A DNA stretch of 64,000 nucleotides from an uncultured Candidatus Rokubacteria bacterium (GCA_963840495.1 CAWIZN010000033.1:12049-76048); one strand, 5' to 3'. Shown: positions 13,838 to 56,888, numbered from the stretch's first letter. Numbers and translations: made by a program. Notes: generated by a model not told the origin, from the sequence alone.

Positions 13838-13928
13838 CTCGGCGCGCCGTCAGCCCAGATCGCAACTGATTCGATCCGGCTCCCTTCGAGGACACCATGC
13901 CGCCCAGCAGGTCCCCGATCGGGTCCTG

Positions 13929-16734
13929 CTACGTCACCAGCCGGAGGCCCTCGGGCAGGCTCTCGCCGAACGCGCGCACGCGCTCGACCTCGGAGGGCGG
14001 CCGGACCTCGATGAGTCGGATGGGCGGCTCGGGCAAGACCCCGGACGCCACCACTCGGTCGTAGACCTCGCGACCGAGGTCTTCGTCGACGTCCAGGGCC
14101 GGGTCGCCGGTGCGCGCGGCGATCTGCACGGCCGTTGCCGCGATGTCCGGGGACAGCGGGCCGAGATCGAGCAATGCGCGCACCCACTGCCCGGCCGTCT
14201 GCGCGTCCACGACGGTATTGAGCGGCCCGTACAGCGGCAGGCGGGCGCCCGTTCGCCCGAGCGCCCACAGCAAGCTGCCGTTGCGCGGCTCCCGCTTCAG
14301 CCGAGCCAGCAGCTCCGCGCCGAGCGCTCGCCGATGCGCCGCGGGCAGATCCTCCAGGCTCGCGAGCAGGCGCAGCGCTTCGCGCTCGACCTGGGGCGGC
14401 AGGCGCTTCGGTCGCTTGCCCGCCGCGGCCACGACAACGGGCGCCTGGCGATCGTAGATCTCGTGCTGCTGCCCGGGCGTGAGTCCGCCGGCGATGCGCT
14501 GCCACAGGACCAGCCACTCCGCCTGACACTGGACGTCTGCGGCAAACGCGGGCCCGGCGAGATACAGCCGGCGCGCATGCGTCATCCGCCAGTCGTCGAG
14601 CGTGGCGCCGAAGCCCGGGCGCAGGCAGTAGCCGAGGAGGTTCAGCCAGCGGGCCTCGTGCCGGGGCGATCGCCGCCGGCCATCCGGCACCTCGAGCAGG
14701 GCGTCGGCGATGGGCCGCAGCGCGCCGAGCGGCCAGGCCTGCCTGGCGAACCCGAGACGCTCCTCGAGGTGGGCCATGAGGGTATCCGGCGTGGCCGCGG
14801 CATTGGTGCTCCCGCCGAACAGCGCCTTCACGAGGGCGACCGCGCCGGCGACCGCGCCGGGATCGATCACCGCGGAGGTCGGCTCGGGCTCCTCTCCGCC
14901 GCGCCCGCGGCCCGCGCCCGCCGCCCGAAGCTGGAACTGCAGGCGCCAGCGGTGTCCGGTCGCGGGGGCGATGATCCACAGCTCGAGCGTGCCGAGCTCG
15001 GTGTAGACCACCTCGAGCACGACGCGGACGTCGGCGTGCCGGGAGCGCTGGCCGAAGCGCAGCTCGGTCACGAGCGGCGCGTGCCGGTGCGCGGAAGGAT
15101 CCGCGGTGGAGACGTCGCCGAACTCGGCGTGGCTCGTCAGGCTGGACACGAGGGTGAACGACAGCGGGCGGTTGGCCCTCACCACGAACTCCCGCGTCTC
15201 GAGCCGTCGCGTGGTGCCCTCCGGCGTGCCGCGCGGCAGCACGCAGACGACCTGTCGCTCGCCGTCACCCGCCCCGCCGCCGAGCGACAGAAAGCACGCG
15301 CGGGGAGTGCCGCCGCCGATGCGCAGCCCGAGGCCTCGCCGCACCAGGCCGGAGTACGCCGCGCCCTCGGCCACCGCCACCGCCGGCGCCGCGTTCGCGA
15401 GCACGCGCAGGGGCCACGGGCGGCCGTCGGCCTCGGCGAACCAGCCGGACACGACCTGGGCGAGACGCGTCTGCGTCTCTTCCGGCGTGAAGAAGCCCCC
15501 GTTGAGCAGCAGCACATCCGGGCGCACCGCGCCTCGATCGCCGGCCGCGGACAGGAACCTGGCGAGATGCCGGGTGATCGCCGGGTCGGCCGCGAACGGC
15601 AGACCGAGCTCTCGGAGCCCGCTCCGCCGCCCCGCGTCCGGCTCGGCGTCGATGGCGCAGGCCGGCAGGAAGCCGTCGAGCAGGAGCCGCACGACGTCCT
15701 CGCGCGCGAGGTCCACGGACAGGGCGCCGCCGACGACGGCGCCGCCGCTTCCGAGGAGCGACACCGTCGCCCGATCCACCGGCGGGGGCCCGAGCAGGCG
15801 CTCCTTCACCGCCGCGCACTGACGCCGGAGCGCCTGCTGCTGGCGCAGCGTCAGCCGCGCCTGGCCGAGCCGCTCCTGCACCAGCGCGGTCAGCGCGAGA
15901 TCGACGTTGTCGCCGCCCAGCAGCAGGTGCTCGCCGACCGCGATGCGCTCGAGCACCGGGCCGTCCGCCTCGGTGCGCACCGATACCAGGGTGAAGTCGG
16001 TGGTGCCGCCGCCGACGTCGCAGATCAGCACGCGGTCGCCGTCGCGGAGCGACGCGGCGAGCGACCCGCGGTTGGCCGCGATCCAGGCGTAGAGCGCGGC
16101 CGTCGGCTCCTCGACCATGGTCAGCTGCTCGATGCCGGCCGCCCGCGCCGCCTCGATCGTCAGCTCGCGGGCTTCCTCGTCGAACGATGCGGGCACCGTG
16201 AGCGTGACGGCCTGCCGCTCGAACGCCAGCGGCCCGGCAGCGACGCGGTGGTTCCAGGCGTCGCGCACGTGCCGGAGCACGGCGGCCGAGGCATCGACCG
16301 GCGACAGCGCGAAGCCGCCCGCCTCGCCTCCCCAGGGCAACACGCGGTGCGCGCCGATCGACGGCGTCGCTGCACAGCCACGACTTCGCCGATGACACGA
16401 GGCGGCCCGGCACGAGCGCCCCGTGGTCGCGCGCCCAGGCGCCGACGACGTGGGATGGGTGCTCCGCCCACGGCAGGTCGAACCGGCCCGAATCGCGCTC
16501 CTCGGGGCGGAGCAGATAGAGAAAGGACGGCAGCGTCGCCATCGGCGCCACTTCGCCCTCGGCCACGAGCTGGGGGACCTCGAACACGCGGACGCGCGGC
16601 GTGCCCGCGTCGGTCAGCTCGCGCAGGTCAGCAAAGGCGACGGCCGAGTTGGTGGTGCCCAGGTCGATGCCGATGACGAAGCGCGGCGTGCCGGGCTCGC
16701 CCTCGGCCAGCGGATCCGACATGGCGCCGGGCAC
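13929..16734 (-). CDS. Atypical Hsp70-family protein (~935 aa; NBD plus long C-terminal helical extension), frameshifted near 16345-16380
   Basis: N-terminal ..FVIGIDLGTTNSAVAFA.. (ORF 15265..16734). It continues in another frame (ORF 13929..16343) with ..VLICDVGGGTTDFTLVSV..IAVGEHLLLGGDNVDLAL.. One base change in gatcggcgcgcaCcgcgtgttg restores the frame. Confidence 0.65.
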
Positions 16735-16803
16735 CGATCAGGGCGCGGTGGCCCGCCGCATGCGGCGCTCGCCGAGGTCCCTCACCGCGCCACCTCGATC
16801 CGC

Positions 16804-18654
16804 TCAGCCGCGCGCCGCGTCCCGCTGCCGGATGTTCCACTCGAGCTTCCAGCGATGCGAGTCGTCGCGCGCGACGAGCCACAGCTCGATCGTGCCCACC
16901 TCGGTCACGCGGCTCTCGAGCCTCACGGGCAAGACGGTGTGCTCGCGTCCCGGCAGGCGTCAGCGTGACCTCGAGCGGATGGAGCTCGTCGATCTCGGTG
17001 CCCCAGTCCTCCACGAGGGTGCCGACGGTGTCCTGCTTGCGGGCCGCCGATGACAGGAACCGGAACTCCGCCGCCTCGCCGACCACGAGGCCGAACTCGC
17101 GCCCGGAGATCGTCGGCCTCGGTCCCCTCCTCCATGCCGAACGGCACGACGCACAGCGCCTTGATCGGGGCCTCGAGACCGGGCACCGCGGGCATGGCGC
17201 TCTCGATGCCGATGTAGTACGTGCTCGGGGCGCCGCCGCGGATGCGCACGCCGCGCCCGCGGCGGGTCAGCCCGTAGTAGGCGGCGCCGCGCGCGACCGC
17301 GTGGTCGAGGTCGGGCGCCTCGAGCACGCCGGCCTCGCCGAGCGGCGGGAACCCGTCGGCGACCAGCCACGCGTCGAGCGCGCCGCGCACCCGATCGCGC
17401 AGCGACGCCGCCTTCATGACGCCGCCGTTGAAGAGCACGTGGGTCGGCGCGGCCAGCCCGCTCGCGCCGCGGCGCAGCCGGATGCCCTGCTCGACGCTGT
17501 CCGCGGCCAGGTCGGCGAGGAACCGGGCGAGGTGCTTGGTGATCGCGGCATCGGCGGCATAGGGCAGGCCCAGCTCCTGCAGGCCGACCCGGCGCGTCCG
17601 CTGGGGCCGCGCATCGGCGCCGACCATCGGGAAGAAGCCCTCGACCAGCGTGTCGACCAGCTCGTCGCGCGTGAGCTCGGTGGAGATCGAGCCGCCGACC
17701 AGGCGCGTGCCCCGGCCCAGCAAGGTGACGGGCTGGGCATCGACGCGAGCGTCCTCGAAGAGCCGCTCCTTGGCGACCCGGCACTGGTGCCAGAGCTGCT
17801 GGAGCTGCCACGAGTCGATGCGGTGGCCGGCGCCCTCGAGCTTCTGCTGCAGCCGTCGCGCGAGCGCCAGGTCCATGTTGTCGCCGCCCAGCAGGATGTG
17901 CTCGCCCACGGCGACGCGGCGCAGCGCGAGCGACGCCGTCCTCCTCGCCGACCGCGATGAGGCTGAAGTCGGTGGTGCCGCCGCCCACGTCGCACACCAG
18001 CACCAGGTCGCCCACCTTCACGCGCTCGCGCCAGGCGTCGCCCTGCGCGGCGAGCCATGCGTAGAACGCCGCCTGGGGCTCTTCGAGGAGGCGCACGCCC
18101 GGCAAGCCGGCCTCCGCCGCCGCCTGGAGCGTCAGCTCCCGCGCCTCCTCGTCGAACGAGGCGGGCACGGTCACGAGCACCTCCTGGTCGCCGAGCGCCG
18201 CGCCGTCGGCGCCGCGCGCGTGCTGCCACGCGCGCGCCAGGTGCGCCAGGTACCGCGCCGACGCGAACACGGGCGACACGCGGCGAACGTCCTCCGGCGC
18301 CTGCCACGGCAGGATGTCGGCGGTCCGGTCCACCCCCGCGTGCGAGAGCCACGACTTCGCCGACGCCACCAGGCGGGCCGGATTCTCGGCGCCGCGCTTG
18401 CGCGCGAGCTCGCCGATCACCGCGTCGGCCTCGCCCTCCCACGGCAGCGCGATCGCCCCGGGCGCGAAATCCGCCGGACCCGGCAGGAAGAGGAACGACG
18501 GCAGGAGCGTGGGCGCGGCGACCTCGCCGGGGTTGACGAGCTGCGCGATGCCCTGCACGGCCGGCGAGGCCTCGTCGCCCGCGCTCGTGTCGACGTCCGC
18601 GAGCGCGCAGTTCGTCGTGCCGAGGTCGATGCCGATGATGAACCGGGCGTCCAT
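16804..18654 (-). CDS. Hsp70-family protein, paralog #2 (~615 aa), with at least three single-base frameshifts
   Basis: ORF 16960..18654 N-terminal FIIGIDLGTTNCALA..VCDVGGGTTDFSLIAVGEEDG. It shifts into the ORF 16923..17909 frame (..VAVGEHILLGGDNMDLALA..) and shifts twice more near 17085 and 16960 before ending ..WKLEWNIRQRDAARG*. Confidence 0.6.
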
Positions 18655-18655
18655 G

Positions 18656-19224
18656 TCAGCTGATTTCCACCTCGGCCGGCGTCACGACCTGCCGCGCAGC
18701 CGAGGCGGCCAGCGGCGGCAGGGCCGGCCGGCCGACGCGCCAGCCGCGGTGGCGCACGGTGCCGAGGTAGCTCGCCTGCTGGCCCACGTTGCCGACGAGC
18801 TTGACCGTGAAGGGGTCCACGGGGGCGCCCAGCGCGATGGTCTGGCCTTCCAGGTCGGCGAGAATCGGCTCGATGGGCAGGTAGCGATCGATCACCCGGC
18901 GGCAGCTCGCGTGCACCTCGCGCACCGCGGCGCCGACCTGCGCGTCGCTGTACGCGGCGACGTCCTCGAACAGGAAGTCGACCAGGCGGCCGTCGCGCTG
19001 GAGCAGGGCGAGCAATTGAATCGCGCGGTCACCCGGATCGTCCGCTCCGCCGCCGCGGGCGGGCCCGCGGTCGCCACGGCCGCGGCCGGGCGCGCCGCCC
19101 CCCGGGCGACGCGGATGGCGCGACCACCTCGACGATATCCGCCGGCACGATGCCCTTGAACAGCAGGGCGAAGAAGCACCTGAACGCGAACGCCACACGT
19201 CGACCGAAGCTCATCGCCGCCATG
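18656..19224 (-). CDS. DUF2760-like protein, third gene of the Hsp70 module; frameshifted in a C6/G-rich run ~19090
   Basis: N-terminal hydrophobic segment MSFGRRVAFAFRCFFALLFKGIV.. (ORF 19029..19328 frame). It joins ..LLQRDGRLVDFLFEDVAAYSDAQVGAAVREVHASCRRVIDRYLPIEPIL.. (ORF 18656..19198 frame). Confidence 0.5.
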
Positions 19225-19511
19225 GACCCCCCGAGGGAGCGCGTACGGGCAATCGGAAAGCCGCCCGTCGGGCTCGAGCGAACCACCCACGTTACCCCGC
19301 TCCACCTCTCGTGGGCAAGCATCCGCATGTATGCCGGTCTCCGTTGGTCGCCGGCGAAGCACTGGTGGACGCGTGCTCGACCGCCTTCGCGATCATCGGT
19401 CGAACGCTGCGCGCCGGCTGAGCAACTCGATGAGCCCGCGCGGGCCGAGCGCTTCCTGGGCGTCGCGACTATACTACTGGCGGCTCAGCATCCAACCTTC
19501 AGGAGGAGATC

Positions 19512-35991: not shown

Positions 35992-36984
35992 ATGCCCCAT
36001 GCATCGGTTGACGGCATCAAGCTCTACTACGAGGAAGCGGGGACGGGCGCGCCGCTCGTCTTCGTCCACGAGTTCGCCGGGGATGCCCGGAGCTGGCACC
36101 TGCAGATGCGCTTCTTCGCCCGGCGCTACCGGTGCATCGCCTTCAATGCCCGCGGCTATCCGCCCTCGGACGTGCCCGACGATCCCGGCGCCTACTCCCA
36201 GCAGCGCGCCGTCGACGACATCAAGGGCGTGCTCGACCACCTGGGCATCGCCAAGGCCCACGTGTGCGGGCTGTCGATGGGCGGCTACGCCACGCTGCTC
36301 TTCGGCCTCAAGTATCCCGAGCGCGCGCTGTCGCTCGTCGTCGCGGGCTGCGGCTACGGCAGCGTCATCGCCGACCGCGAGGCGTTCAAGAAGGACTCCG
36401 ACCTCGTCGCCCGGCGCTTCGAGGCCGACGGCATGGCGAAGGTGGCGGAGTTCTACAGCCGGGGCCCGACGCGCGTGCAGTTCATCGACAAGGACCCGCA
36501 GGGCTGGCAGGAGTTCCACGACCAGTTCGCCGCCGGCTCCGCCCGCGGCCATGCCTTGACCCTGCGCGGGGTGCAGATGACGCGCCCGTCCGTCTTCGAG
36601 CTCGGCGAGCAGATGGAGCGCCTCGAGACGCCGACGCTGGTGATGACCGGCGACGAGGACGAGCCCTGCCTCGAGCCGAACGTCTTCATGAAGCGCAAGA
36701 TCCCCGCGGCCGGACTCGTCGTCCTCCCCAAGGCGGGCCACACCATCAACCTCGAGGACCCCGAGGCCTTCAACCGCGCCGTCCTCGACTTCCTCACCGC
36801 CGTCGACGCCGGCCGCTGGCCGCGCCGCAATCCCGCCTCGCTCGCCAAGTCGGCGATCCTGCCTTCGCATTCCGCAGTCCGTCGAGCTCGCGTAGCGCGC
36901 CGGGCGTATGGCAGATACTCGGCTCGCCGGTCTCCGGGCACAGACCACGGTGAGGAACTGATCCGGTGGGCGGGGGACGTATGA
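35992..36984 (+). CDS. Alpha/beta-hydrolase fold protein
   Basis: HEFAG oxyanion region, nucleophile elbow GLSMGG, catalytic D/H near the C-terminus (..GHTINLEDP..). Confidence 0.65.
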   Translation: MPHASVDGIKLYYEEAGTGAPLVFVHEFAGDARSWHLQMRFFARRYRCIAFNARGYPPSDVPDDPGAYSQQRAVDDIKGVLDHLGIAKAHVCGLSMGGYATLLFGLKYPERALSLVVAGCGYGSVIADREAFKKDSDLVARRFEADGMAKVAEFYSRGPTRVQFIDKDPQGWQEFHDQFAAGSARGHALTLRGVQMTRPSVFELGEQMERLETPTLVMTGDEDEPCLEPNVFMKRKIPAAGLVVLPKAGHTINLEDPEAFNRAVLDFLTAVDAGRWPRRNPASLAKSAILPSHSAVRRARVARRAYGRYSARRSPGTDHGEELIRWAGDV

Positions 36985-38033
36985 GTTACGCGATACCGCT
37001 GGCCAATCCCAGCCGAGCACTGACGGTGACGGCGCGCGCCGGGCTGGGTAACCGGCTGAAGGTTCTTCTGTCGGGGATAGCCCTGGCCGAAGCAAGCCGG
37101 CGCGCCTTTACGATGGTGTGGCCGCGGACGCACGGCTGTAATTGTTCGTTTGACCGTTTGTTTCAGAACGGCTGGAATGTCACGGAGGAGAGGCTGGCGG
37201 ATGAAGAGCGAGTGATCGAGTTGAGTTTTTGTCCTTGGCTTCGCTTTCCCGATTTATTGAGCAGGACCGAGCAGGAGATTGTGGTCCGCCATCATAGTTG
37301 GCTGATCCAGCCGCAACGTTTTGCAACGCATGCGGAACTGGCCAAGCGCTGCGAAGAGCTGATGGGTGAACTGGCACCTGTTCCTCTCGTCGAGGAGCAG
37401 GTGGCCGCCTTTCAGACCGCGTCGTTTCGGCCCACGATGATCGGCGTCCACCTGCGGCGAGGTGATATGGTCACGGCCCGGCCACACAGGGTGGGCAATC
37501 TGCACGCGGCGTTGCAGGTCGTCGATCGCTGGTTGGAGCAGGAGCCGGAAGCCGGCATTTTTCTGTGTACCGATGACGGGGCCAATGATCACAGGGGAGG
37601 TCAAGAGATTCGCCGTGAGGGTATCCACGACGAGTTTGGCAGACGCTACGGGTCGCGCGTCGTTAGCAGGCAACCACGGAGCCTGGACCGCAATCAGCCG
37701 GAAGCTATCGAGGATGCGCTGGTGGATCTGTGGTTGCTGCGGAAAACGGATCTGTTCGTGGGGACGGCCGGTAGCACATTCTCTGAGATGGCCGTTTATG
37801 GACGCACTGTTCCGGCGGTGATGACGGCCGATCCCACGCCGCGTTATCAACAGCACGAGCGCTGGCTCAAACGAACAGGAGTACGTTACTTGCTGCGCGC
37901 GTTCATCTGGGCCGAGTTTGGGCACGACGCGCCCTGTTTCATGCTCTGGCGGCGCTATCGGCGGCGGTTGCGGTCAGCGGTTCGCGCTCTTGCGTCGGGC
38001 CTTTGGTCGCGCCCAGGGCGAAAGCGAGTGTAG
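36981..38033 (+). CDS. GT11-like glycosyltransferase (alpha-1,2-fucosyltransferase-like) in a low-GC island. The 3' end may be shorter.
   Basis: AGLGNRLKVLLSG (GGLGNQ-like), GVHLRRGDM (HxRRGD motif I), IFLCTDDG, GTAGSTFSEMA (STFS motif). GC is ~57% versus ~70% in the flanks. Confidence 0.45.
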   Translation: MSYAIPLANPSRALTVTARAGLGNRLKVLLSGIALAEASRRAFTMVWPRTHGCNCSFDRLFQNGWNVTEERLADEERVIELSFCPWLRFPDLLSRTEQEIVVRHHSWLIQPQRFATHAELAKRCEELMGELAPVPLVEEQVAAFQTASFRPTMIGVHLRRGDMVTARPHRVGNLHAALQVVDRWLEQEPEAGIFLCTDDGANDHRGGQEIRREGIHDEFGRRYGSRVVSRQPRSLDRNQPEAIEDALVDLWLLRKTDLFVGTAGSTFSEMAVYGRTVPAVMTADPTPRYQQHERWLKRTGVRYLLRAFIWAEFGHDAPCFMLWRRYRRRLRSAVRALASGLWSRPGRKRV

Positions 38034-54650: not shown

Positions 54651-56888
54651 CTAGCTAGTTTCTGTGTCGAAAAAGAAATAGTCTAATAGGGCAAGTGGTT
54701 ACGGCGCAGATCGCCGTGTTGGCCGCGGGGCCCTCGCCTCCATTTCATTGGGATTTGGCGCGCGGCGCGGCCCGACGGGCGCGCCTTGCGGCGCACGCGA
54801 GGGCGGACGGGCGCCGTCCCGAACCGCAGCGCGGCCAGCTCCAAGCCCGCCGCGATCCACGCCTCCACGAGGGTGCGCAGCCGCTCGTAGGTGCGCAACT
54901 GCTGCCGCGTCGTCGCCACGTTCTCGCGGCGCACGAACTGCGTGTGGCTGCGCCCCTGCCAGGTGAAGCTCACCTGGTAGTACGGCCCGTGCTTGCGCGG
55001 GGGATCGGCCTTGCACGCACAGCCGGCCTTGCCGCACACGTTGTACTGTTCGGAGAGCGTGCCCGGCCGGAGGTCGCCCAGCGTCAGCAGTTCCTGCTTC
55101 AGCGTCGTCGATCTTCGCTTCCAGATGGGCCTGGCGGGTCCCTGTCGTCATCGCGGCCCTCATCGTAGCGCGAAATCGTGTTGACGCGGTGCGGGCCGAC
55201 GCAGTAGAATCCGGCAGCATTATAGTGCTGTCGGGTCCATTCCTTCACTCGGAGAGCGTGCCGATGCGTCTGTCCTGTCCGCCCGCAGCCCAGCTTCGCC
55301 GACCTCGAACTGCAGCGGCAGGGCCTCGCCGTGGATGCCACCCTGCACGCGATCGGCGAGCTCCTCGATGCGCAGCCCGGATTGGTCGACCTGGTCCGCC
55401 AGGATTTGGTGCGCGACTTGCGCCAGCCCCACACCGGGCGCGACGGCCTCACGGCCGAGCAGACGCTGCGCGCCTACGTGTTGAAGCACGTGAAGAACTG
55501 GGATCTGCGGGAGCTGCGCGAGCGCACCGCCGATGGCTTCACCCTGCGCGACTTCACGCGGTTCTTCAGTGCCCCCGTGCCCACGCACAAGGCGTTCCAC
55601 CGCGCGTTCTGTCGGCTGCGGCCCGAGACCGTGCGCGCCCTCAACGAGGCCGTGGTGCGCGCGGCCGTGGCGCAGGGGCTGGAGGATGGCCACCAGCTCC
55701 GCTCCGACACGACGGTCGTGGAGACGAACATCCACTTCCCGACCGACTCGGGCTTGCTGTGGGATGGGGTGCGCGTGCTCACGCGCCTCGTCGGCAAGCT
55801 GCAGGCGTTGCTGCCCGAGCTGGCGGTCCCTTTCGTCAACCATACGCGCCGGGCCCGCCGCCGGATGCAGGAGATCGAGCGGCTGACGCCCACGCAGCGC
55901 CAGACGCAGCAGGTCCCCAAGTACCGCGCCTTGATCACGCTCACGACGACAGGTCCTCGCCGCCGCCCGCGCGGTGGCCGCGGCGGCGCGCGCCGCGCCG
56001 GGCCCCGATCCGCTCACCGGCATCCAGGTGGACGCCCTGGCGACGGAGATCACCACGTATGGCGAGCGGATTGATCGGGTGATCGCGCAGGCGCGCCGCC
56101 GCGTCCTGCAGGGCGAGACGGTGGCCACCGCGGACAAGCTCTTCTCGATCTTCGAGCCCCACACGGACCTGATCAAGCGCGGCAAGGCCCAGCGGCCCGT
56201 GGAGTTCGGCCACAAAGTCCTCCTGAGCGAGAGCGGGCACGGCCTGATCACCGACTACCGCGTGCTCGAGGGCAATCCCACAGACGATCAACACGTCGCC
56301 CCGTCGCTGGCGCACCACATCGCGCTCTTCGGGGGCCCGCCCACGCTCGCGGCGCACGACCGCGGCTTCTACAGCCTCGCGGCGATCGAGGCCTGTCAGG
56401 CCGCGGGCGTGACCACCGAGTGCATCCCGCAGCGCGGCGGCCGCAAGACGCCGGAGCGGGCGGCGCATGAGAAGAGCCGCGCGTTTCGCCGCGGCCAACG
56501 CTTTCGCGCCGGCATTGAAGGGCGGATCTCGGTGCTCTTCCGCGGGCGGGGGATGAAGCGCTGTCTGCTGCACGGGCGCGAGCGCTTCGAGCTCTTCGTC
56601 GGGCTCGCCGTGCTCGCCAACAACTTGCTGGTCATCGCCGACTTGCGTCAAGCGGCGCGCGGCGCGGAGACGGCGCGCCGCGTAGCCGCTCTCTTCGTCT
56701 GCCGGCGCGCCGGAGCAGCGGTCGACGTCTCGGTCTCGGCATCGGCGCGCGCGGTCCGTGCCCTCATCAACCCCCACGCATGTCTCTTCACGCTGTTCGA
56801 AACTCGTCGTACATCTCTGGCGGGTCACCGTCTCCTGAGTCTCTGGCTTTTCCCACACTTCAGCTGTTTCGACACAGAAACTAGCTAG
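54651..56888 (+). mobile_element. Insertion sequence (~2.2 kb) with 22-bp TIRs CTAGCTAGTTTCTGTGTCGAAA, possible CTAG target duplication, and a DDE (DDE_Tnp_1, IS4/IS5-superfamily-like) transposase
   Basis: Left end ctagctagtttctgtgtcgaaa (54651..) and right end tttcgacacagaaactagctag (..56888) are perfect inverted repeats. Internal ORFs 55264/55331..56074 and 55974..56888 encode a transposase with HFPTDSGLLWD and HDRGFYS DDE motifs. A minus-strand ORF 54683..55039 (Cys-rich, 118 aa) lies in the left arm. Confidence 0.7.
55264..56888 (+). CDS. DDE transposase of the IS element, interrupted by at least two frameshifts (~55295 and ~55975). The tail beyond ~56650 is probably a stop-less artefact.
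   Basis: MRLSCPPAAQ.. shifts into ..SFADLELQRQGLAVDATLHAIGELLD..ETNIHFPTDSGLLWD.., then shifts again into ..IQVDALATEITTYGERIDRVIAQ..EFGHKVLLSESGHGLITDYRVLEGNPTDDQHV..AHDRGFYS... Confidence 0.5.

Follow-up and report, generated by a model that had tools for sequence, protein, structure and literature searches.

A three-gene operon that combines a DUF2760 protein with two atypical Hsp70-like ATPases was found on the minus strand of a 64,000-nucleotide stretch of DNA (hereafter the window) from an uncultured Candidatus Rokubacteria bacterium (GCA_963840495.1 CAWIZN010000033.1:12049-76048). It can be classed as a specialised Hsp70 system whose partners are non-canonical. Nor is it confined to a single genome: DUF2760 proteins form 1,729 clusters at 50% identity, DUF2760 genes were located at 592 or more loci, and the module recurs across phyla as a self-contained operon. 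In the standard view an Hsp70 depends on a J-domain protein and a nucleotide-exchange factor; here two catalytically intact Hsp70-fold ATPases are coupled to two DUF families, and neither cofactor is encoded.

A full-text search of the literature library found no paper that names DUF2760 or DUF3731, the second of these families, and searches for atypical or defence-related Hsp70s yielded nothing specific. This agrees with the initial annotation of the window, which had described the module as lacking an assigned function. The observation made in that annotation and its cautious interpretation both stand. The module is genuinely uncharacterised and merits experimental study; the copy described here comes from an error-prone assembly.

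Organisation of the locus

Three-frame translation and a codon-usage Viterbi segmentation showed continuous, co-directional coding on the minus strand from 19223 to 13929, in the order A, B, C. The frame changes in this block exceed what the gene boundaries account for. The closest database homologue of gene C (95% identity) sits on an 11.8-kb ENA metagenome contig (L001), which encodes intact proteins in the same order: a DUF2760 protein of 189 amino acids (aa), an HSP70 protein of 615 aa and an HSP70 protein with DUF3731 of 930 aa. The initial annotation had given the same three genes in this order, with a second gene of ~615 aa and a giant third one (here 930 aa). The extent it proposed, 13929-19224, is right in place and off by one base at its end, as gene A starts at 19223. 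The features of the module are as follows.

Gene A: 18656..19223, minus strand; DUF2760 protein (PF10816), 189 aa after correction, with a 189-aa intact orthologue in L001
DUF2760 domain of gene A: 18659..19030, minus strand; 124 aa in an uninterrupted reading frame, which served as query
Gene B: 16804..18654, minus strand; Hsp70-like ATPase (Pfam HSP70), 615 aa after correction, stop codon confirmed
Gene C: 13929..16722, minus strand; Hsp70-like ATPase with DUF3731, 930 aa after correction, start confirmed
DUF3731 ('DNA-K related protein') match in gene C: 13938..14669, minus strand; PF12531, E-value 1.4e-67
Intergenic region: 19224..19511, 288 bp between gene A and a divergent 2-hydroxyacid dehydrogenase gene; presumed promoter region of the operon

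The module is the G+C maximum of the window (74-75%). Because G+C in the region is 72-75%, mechanical lists of open reading frames (ORFs) are full of spurious frames.

The Hsp70-like proteins B and C

Both B and C match the Pfam HSP70 family (E-values 2e-15 and 7e-15), and gene C has more than 7900 database homologues. The two proteins are paralogues and share 41-42% identity over ~600 aa. The initial annotation had considered them only distantly related on the basis of the motifs FIIGIDLGTTNCALA and FVIGIDLGTTNSAVAFA; both motifs are present, and the relationship is a moderate one.

Searches with profile hidden Markov models on the frame-corrected proteins do not place them among ordinary DnaK or HscA proteins. 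NCBIfam DnaK models reached 40-65 bits (cut-offs 648-1019) and covered only residues ~16-300. The HscA models TIGR01991 and NF003520 gave 78-88 bits, against cut-offs of 709 and 620, and NF008673, a YegD-type model (ATPase domain only), gave 23-33 bits against a cut-off of 331. No isc or hscB genes flank the module, either in the window or among the Pfam matches listed for flanking ORFs at ~70 loci. Judged by these profile scores, B and C are not DnaK, HscA or YegD; no HscC-specific model was among the hits.

An AlphaFold2 (AF2) model of the 930-aa gene C protein was built from a 65-sequence alignment (mean predicted local distance difference test, pLDDT, 81.5). It comprises a nucleotide-binding domain (aa 1-465), a beta-rich domain that forms a beta-sandwich (470-600), a disordered linker (600-620) and a helical region (620-930). 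In this model there is no alpha-helical lid, and the beta domain is followed by DUF3731. Gene B likewise encodes a nucleotide-binding domain and a beta-rich C-terminal domain, where the protein ends, the lid being absent. The top Foldseek matches were DnaK and BiP (E ~1e-23; 4e-23 to DnaK), with 16-20% identity to solved Hsp70s. TM-scores (template modelling scores) were 0.6-0.7 on targets of 520-540 residues, values which do not in themselves prove an overlay of the beta domain on the beta part of the DnaK substrate-binding domain (SBD). The beta domains of B and C are clearly homologous to each other by hhalign, and Pfam searches at a relaxed E-value gave no HEAT or TPR hits on the beta domains or on DUF3731.

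The Hsp70 superfamily motifs are present, namely phosphate-1 DxGTTNS, the catalytic Lys and Glu, phosphate-2 DxGGGTxD and the adenosine GG. When 67 B and 61 C orthologues were aligned with E. coli DnaK (its sequence entered by hand), D8, T11-N13, K70, E171, D194, G196-T199, D201 and G341-G342 were found to be 97-100% conserved in the orthologues of both proteins. The conservation of these ATPase residues suggests that B and C are catalytically competent. The column of R167, which contacts the J-domain in DnaK, is Thr in 94-97% of B and C orthologues. The VLLLD linker is absent as well: its columns read A-P-L-K-A in B and are gapped or variable in C.

The DUF3731 tail of gene C

PF12531 matched the last 250 aa of gene C, C-terminal to the HSP70 match, with 228.6 bits (gathering cut-off 25) over the whole profile (1-248/248), at aa 559-802 of the 804-aa ORF. 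In the AF2 model the domain is all-helical, with ~16 helices between aa 620 and 930. The initial annotation had noted a C-terminal helical extension unlike the SBD and lid of DnaK; this description holds, and the extension can now be assigned to a Pfam family. The invariant core of DUF3731, E-x-x-W...G...RPGxG...D..R, is kept from Acidobacteriota to Alpha- and Betaproteobacteria. Identity to the window copy is 39-55% for most acidobacterial, Binatia and beta-proteobacterial copies and 29% for Bradyrhizobium. The extreme C-terminus of gene C is also conserved (FGESLPxGLRL(V), window 13932-13970). A profile search found no relatives of DUF3731 among PDB sequences.

The DUF2760 protein

The small ORF, initially annotated as DUF2760-like, matches PF10816 with 141.3 bits (gathering cut-off 25; E 1.8e-41; profile 4-124/124), and the intact orthologue scores 137.8 bits. 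Its AF2 model (pLDDT 78) contains an N-terminal helix (aa 6-23), a disordered Pro/Ala linker, three helices and a four-stranded sheet. Across the family the N-terminal part varies in length, and the DUF2760 domain is always C-terminal with a near-invariant end, PAEVE[ILV]x (PAEVEI in window gene A, 18659-18680). This tail is retained even in variants that consist of A and B only or of A and C only. As a side observation, the conserved C-terminal tails of A and C may make tail-into-groove contacts of the kind known for the EEVD tails of eukaryotic Hsp70s.

At least one transmembrane (TM)-like segment was detected by Kyte-Doolittle analysis in 98 of 146 diverse DUF2760 proteins, and two such segments in 77 of them. 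The presence of TM-type helices in most members suggests that the DUF2760 protein is usually membrane-anchored. In P0131, a single two-TM member read by eye, basic residues flank the cytoplasmic sides, and on our reading of this charge distribution its DUF2760 domain would be cytoplasmic.

The DUF2760 fold had no significant Foldseek match in PDB (best E 1.5) or BFVD, and a profile search against PDB sequences was empty. Comparisons by hhalign with E. coli GrpE and the DnaJ J-domain gave probabilities below 1%, weak negatives because the template sequences were entered by hand. No HPD motif occurs among the invariant residues of the family alignment.

Conservation and variants of the module

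A pattern scan with one genome per species yielded at least 592 DUF2760 loci, and the best 80 were fetched. These are mostly from Acidobacteriota and also include Binatia, Entotheonella, Eisenbacteria, Sumerlaeia and a delta-proteobacterial metagenome-assembled genome (MAG). Gene order was counted wherever at least 5.3 kb of sequence lay downstream, which was the case at 68 loci. DUF2760 and Hsp70 are linked in all 68; the order is A-B-C in 65 and A-C in 3. In the A-C variants (L066, L077 and L078, from Binatia and Eisenbacteria) a DUF2760 protein with TM-like segments is followed by a single Hsp70-DUF3731 gene, which resembles B and C to about the same degree. The A-C form may be ancestral, with B arising from a duplication.

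On Bradyrhizobium conjugative plasmids and a Comamonadaceae plasmid the triad is annotated as 'DUF2760 domain-containing protein / Hsp70 family protein / hsp70 family protein', and it is also present on Desulfobacterales contigs and two other distant contig sets. In a plasmid collection, DUF3731 lies on the same strand in 10 of 11 DUF2760 records, ~4.6 kb away where coordinates were checked. The exception is plasmid pTs485 of Candidatus Thiodictyon syntrophicum (L082, 8698-11216), which carries DUF2760 and a 615-aa Hsp70-like protein and has no DUF3731 gene. Where examined, Acidobacteriota, Alpha- and Betaproteobacteria and Desulfobacterales all carry the operon; Binatia, Entotheonella and the delta-proteobacterial MAG probably do so too. 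The recurrence of the trio in other genomes, suggested in the initial annotation, is thus borne out. Among its carriers are Burkholderia and Caballeronia replicons (1.3-3.5 Mb) as well as the Bradyrhizobium plasmids, all of them from cultured isolates, so that tests in tractable hosts should be feasible. DUF2760 was not found in 50,697 phage genomes or 2.9 million viral contigs.

Flanking genes, regulation and borders

The neighbours of the module in the window are metabolic genes (2-hydroxyacid dehydrogenase, GDSL lipase, CoA-transferase, 2-oxoglutarate-Fe(II) oxygenase, ferredoxin reductase, Rieske protein and aroA). As initially annotated, no dnaJ or grpE adjoins it there, and neither DnaJ nor GrpE is among the commonest flank families listed for ~70 loci. 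All-versus-all clustering of flanking ORFs found no shared neighbour of the module. In the upstream flanks 161 Pfam families were found, and even the most frequent one occurs in just 4 of 137 ORFs; the downstream flanks have 140, none in more than 2 of 129. PADLOC was run on 266 flanking ORFs from ~70 loci; of the matches listed, those to generic Ser/Thr kinases, in 5 ORFs, and to Cas6, in 2, were the commonest. The A+B variant on pTs485 lies in a defence island with DUF3780, DUF1156 and PLD anti-phage proteins, VapC and a TIR-domain protein. In a single case, the Desulfobacterales contigs L087-L089, the triad is divergent from a lipid-transport operon of MlaE/MlaF/MlaD type and is followed by an IS110 transposase.

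Upstream of gene A, motifs for CIRCE, HAIR, sigma-32 and sigma-54 had 0-1 matches in 79 loci. No sigma-70, CIRCE, HAIR, sigma-32 or sigma-54 consensus was found in 19224..19511; the sigma-70/terminator scan was uninformative. There are no terminal direct or inverted repeats around the module, and the long 'repeats' detected there reflect the paralogy of B and C.

The window and L001 cease to be homologous within four bases of the gene C stop (window 13925-13931, L001 5366-5370), and beyond this point they carry entirely different genes. As L001 reaches only 73 nt upstream of gene A, the downstream border of the module is the one that can be compared. This break hints at rearrangement or transfer of the whole module; a chimeric contig would give the same picture.

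Elsewhere, the whole 64 kb window has no tRNA, tmRNA or Rfam matches at gathering thresholds. At 36966-38033 (+), within a low-G+C stretch at 32-38 kb (65-67%), there is a 355-aa ORF of lower G+C and atypical codon usage that the coding model scores as non-coding. It may have been horizontally acquired.

Frameshifts in this assembly

All three genes are broken in the window by six 1-bp indels relative to L001, to which the window is 95.8% identical in nucleotide sequence across 5,376 alignment columns. The indels are as follows.

Gene A, ~19099, minus strand: missing base relative to L001
Gene A, ~19046, minus strand: missing base relative to L001
Gene B, 17934, minus strand: extra G, frameshift relative to L001
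Gene B, 17114, minus strand: extra G, frameshift relative to L001
Gene B, 16958, minus strand: extra G, frameshift relative to L001
Gene C, 16343, minus strand: extra G, frameshift relative to L001

Once these six positions are edited, ORFs of 189, 615 and 930 aa are regained. In minus-strand reading each of the four inserted G's directly follows a C; they are not homopolymer-length errors. They may be a systematic basecalling artefact or a product of chance in 75% G+C DNA.

Similar damage is found in unrelated genes. Frame switches without stop codons occur at ~10448, ~28947, ~38753, ~60296 and ~60923, and single Pfam domains are split across frames in aroA (EPSP synthase; between profile positions 281 and 288), in an amidohydrolase (130 and 133) and in a cobalamin-independent methionine-synthase-like (MetE-like) gene (88 and 115). 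These split genes across the window indicate that single-base indel errors are assembly-wide. Two further genes were noted in passing: a B12-binding/radical-SAM-like gene appears to be split over three frames, and an IS5-like transposase (DUF772 and DDE_Tnp_1; 55277-56642, plus strand) is split between two frames near 55948, a split that may be genuine to the element or one more sequencing frameshift.

Substitutions between the window and L001 number 47, 40 and 123 at the three codon positions (123 of 210 at the third), and the codon changes are 111 synonymous and 79 non-synonymous. Because substitutions concentrate at third codon positions, the trio is under purifying selection. Matches are likewise fragmented in several related MAG loci. 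The frameshifts in the module are therefore most likely assembly errors and not biology, since other genes are split too, the trio is under purifying selection, L001 is intact and the MAG loci are fragmented. That this copy is instead a decaying pseudogene cluster, its six indels being real mutations, is decidedly improbable. Such decay would fit the indel density, with 6 in the 5.3 kb module against ~6 candidate frameshifts in the remaining 58.7 kb, and also the G-after-C pattern of all four insertions, unlike the classic homopolymer error. However, aroA, the amidohydrolase and the MetE-like synthase are split in the same way, the changes relative to intact L001 are mostly at third positions and more often synonymous, related MAG loci are similarly fragmented, and the module has the highest G+C in the window, where more indel errors are expected.

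Proposed function and alternatives

Because B and C lack the lid, the VLLLD linker and the J-contact arginine and keep intact catalytic residues, and because the genes are strictly linked and no J-domain or GrpE gene is linked to them, the module can tentatively be read as a membrane-tethered, J/GrpE-independent two-Hsp70 remodelling machine. This reading is possible rather than probable. The DUF2760 protein would be the membrane-associated subunit, and its DUF2760 domain, with the invariant PAEVE tail, would dock the soluble ATPases B and C on the cytoplasmic side of the membrane. B and C may act as a pair in which each regulates the nucleotide cycle of the other, replacing DnaJ and GrpE, by analogy with Hsp70-Hsp110 and Ssz1. 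The helical DUF3731 domain of C could serve as a platform that binds a client or partner, and the output would be the ATP-driven remodelling or extraction of membrane-associated proteins. The further-reaching proposal, in which DUF2760 represents a new class of Hsp70 cofactor, membrane-anchored and working with the lid-less pair and DUF3731 in such a J/GrpE-independent, ATP-driven machine on membrane-associated clients, is doubtful and on the unlikely side.

Several observations weigh against a membrane-tethered remodelling machine. Window gene A has only a short hydrophobic or amphipathic helix that contains Arg and Lys (motif RRVAFAFRCFFALLFKG), which may serve as an in-plane anchor, act as a pseudo-substrate peptide or not bind the membrane. 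Since a single helix with its N-terminus inside would put the DUF2760 domain outside the cell, an in-plane amphipathic anchor is presumed here. The beta-rich domain (~125 aa) showed no hhalign similarity to the SBD of DnaK, a weak negative given a DnaK template entered by hand. The search upstream of gene A turned up no promoter motif of heat shock or membrane stress. The physical contacts among A, B and C, the regulation within a B-C heterodimer, the client and the cellular role are all points that we infer. Finally, the defence-island position of A+B on pTs485 and the presence of the module on conjugative plasmids would fit an accessory or conflict role equally well.

One rival explanation assigns the module to anti-phage defence or conflict: B and C, as Hsp70-like NTPases, would detect a protein or RNA of the invader, and the small membrane protein DUF2760 would act as the effector that damages the membrane, a scheme found in many abortive-infection systems. 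The module is autonomous, its flanks differ in every lineage, it occurs on conjugative plasmids, and on pTs485 A+B stand between DUF1156/DUF3780 and PLD anti-phage genes, VapC and a TIR protein. Synteny with the 95.8%-identical L001 stops exactly at the gene C stop codon, gene C resembles in architecture the CoCoNuT protein CnuD (Hsp70-like nucleotide-binding domain, NBD, and SBD fused or linked to HEAT-like helical repeats; PMC11090510), and there is a weak partial PADLOC hit to the candidate PDC-M61B (E 1.5e-6). Nevertheless, a defence role appears improbable. PADLOC-DB v2 has no family for A, and B and C match only PDC-M61B, in part (25 and 13.5 bits). The commonest PADLOC matches listed for the 266 flanking ORFs are the generic kinases and Cas6, flanks in the window and at all distant loci inspected are metabolic or housekeeping, the trio contains no nuclease, toxin or NADase domains, DUF2760 is absent from the phage genomes and viral contigs searched, and the sequences are well conserved across phyla under purifying selection. 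The initial annotation had offered, besides a dedicated chaperone, a membrane- or defence-associated role: the membrane option gains from the TM-type helices of 98 of 146 DUF2760 proteins, and the defence option has almost no support.

Two other explanations are much less probable. In the first, B and C would be DnaK, HscA or HscC paralogues that act as ordinary stress chaperones with the general DnaJ and GrpE of the cell, and DUF2760 would be an unrelated neighbour; HscA and DnaK models as best NCBIfam hits, DnaK and BiP as top PDB folds and the intact ATPase residues speak for it. But the scores are about one tenth of the cut-offs and cover half of the nucleotide-binding domain, the alpha-lid, the VLLLD linker and the R167 equivalent are all missing, DUF2760 is linked in 68/68 genome loci and in other phyla, and CIRCE, HAIR and sigma-32 elements were not found upstream, so that this explanation is largely refuted and very unlikely. 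A cytoskeletal or scaffold role, with B and C as actin-like (ASKHA) filaments tethered to the membrane by A, is just as unlikely. It draws on weak MreB_Mbl hits (Pfam and NCBIfam) to both proteins, and on the separate membrane anchor, which recalls the membrane-targeting helices of FtsA and MreB. The MreB hits are sub-threshold and reflect a superfamily-wide fold, however; the structural matches are Hsp70s, not actins, and the Hsp70-specific catalytic Lys K70 is invariant.

Comparison with known systems

B and C share with the DnaK of the DnaK-DnaJ-GrpE system the Hsp70 nucleotide-binding fold (N-terminal ~460 aa), the catalytic residues that were checked and a subsequent beta-rich domain. Unlike DnaK, they have no lid, VLLLD linker or J-contact arginine, and they are linked to DUF2760 and not to a J-domain protein or GrpE. 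E. coli HscC is a specialised Hsp70 with a shortened or absent lid and is encoded beside the membrane-anchored J-proteins DjlB and DjlC. The module is similar in that a specialised Hsp70 paralogue stands beside a dedicated membrane-anchored partner, but this partner lacks a J-domain and HPD motif, there are two Hsp70s, and HscC has no DUF3731. HscC is mentioned in a review of 2026 (PMC13580251), in which the function of the bacterial 'DnaK derivates' of Myxococcus and Anaeromyxobacter is treated as an open question. The triad is a well-defined and genetically compact entry into that question. Like B and C, the 'DnaK derivates' and StkA of M. xanthus are bacterial Hsp70-fold proteins without a lid or with extra C-terminal domains. 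StkA has 540 aa and is linked to SCP2-like and PhaE-like genes (PMC4319316). The stk locus was considered as an instance of the same module and rejected, as StkA is accompanied by SCP2-like and PhaE-like genes and by no DUF2760 or second Hsp70; a published M. xanthus Hsp70 survey contained no relevant gene pairs.

CnuD of type III CoCoNuT systems combines an Hsp70-like NBD and SBD with HEAT-like repeats, has degenerate Walker-like motifs and is encoded with a McrB-like GTPase (CnuB), McrC, CnuC and HEPN genes (PMC11090510). Gene C has the same gross order of Hsp70-like ATPase, beta domain and helical domain, a likeness of architecture; its motifs are intact, whereas the Walker-like motifs of CnuD are degenerate. 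None of the McrB, McrC and HEPN families occurs in the window flanks or among the commonest flank families of the ~70 loci.

Structures of the eukaryotic pairs Hsp70-Hsp110 (Sse1) and Ssz1-Zuo1 (ribosome-associated complex), PDB 3C7N and 6SR6, were among the fold matches. In these pairs, as in the module, two diverged Hsp70-fold proteins occur together, one with an enlarged helical C-terminal part. One partner of Hsp70-Hsp110 and of Ssz1-Zuo1 regulates the nucleotide cycle of the other. The module differs from Hsp110 in that DUF3731 is unrelated in sequence to the Hsp110 lid and both B and C keep full catalytic sets. In the mtHsp70-Tim44 import motor, a dedicated protein that is not a J-protein tethers an Hsp70 to the inner side of a membrane. 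DUF2760 has no similarity to solved structures and translocon genes are not linked to it, but the layout proposed for the module is alike. If DUF2760 proteins were indeed such membrane-anchored cofactors, the module would be a bacterial counterpart, in logic and not in ancestry, of Tim44-mtHsp70 or Hsp70-Hsp110.

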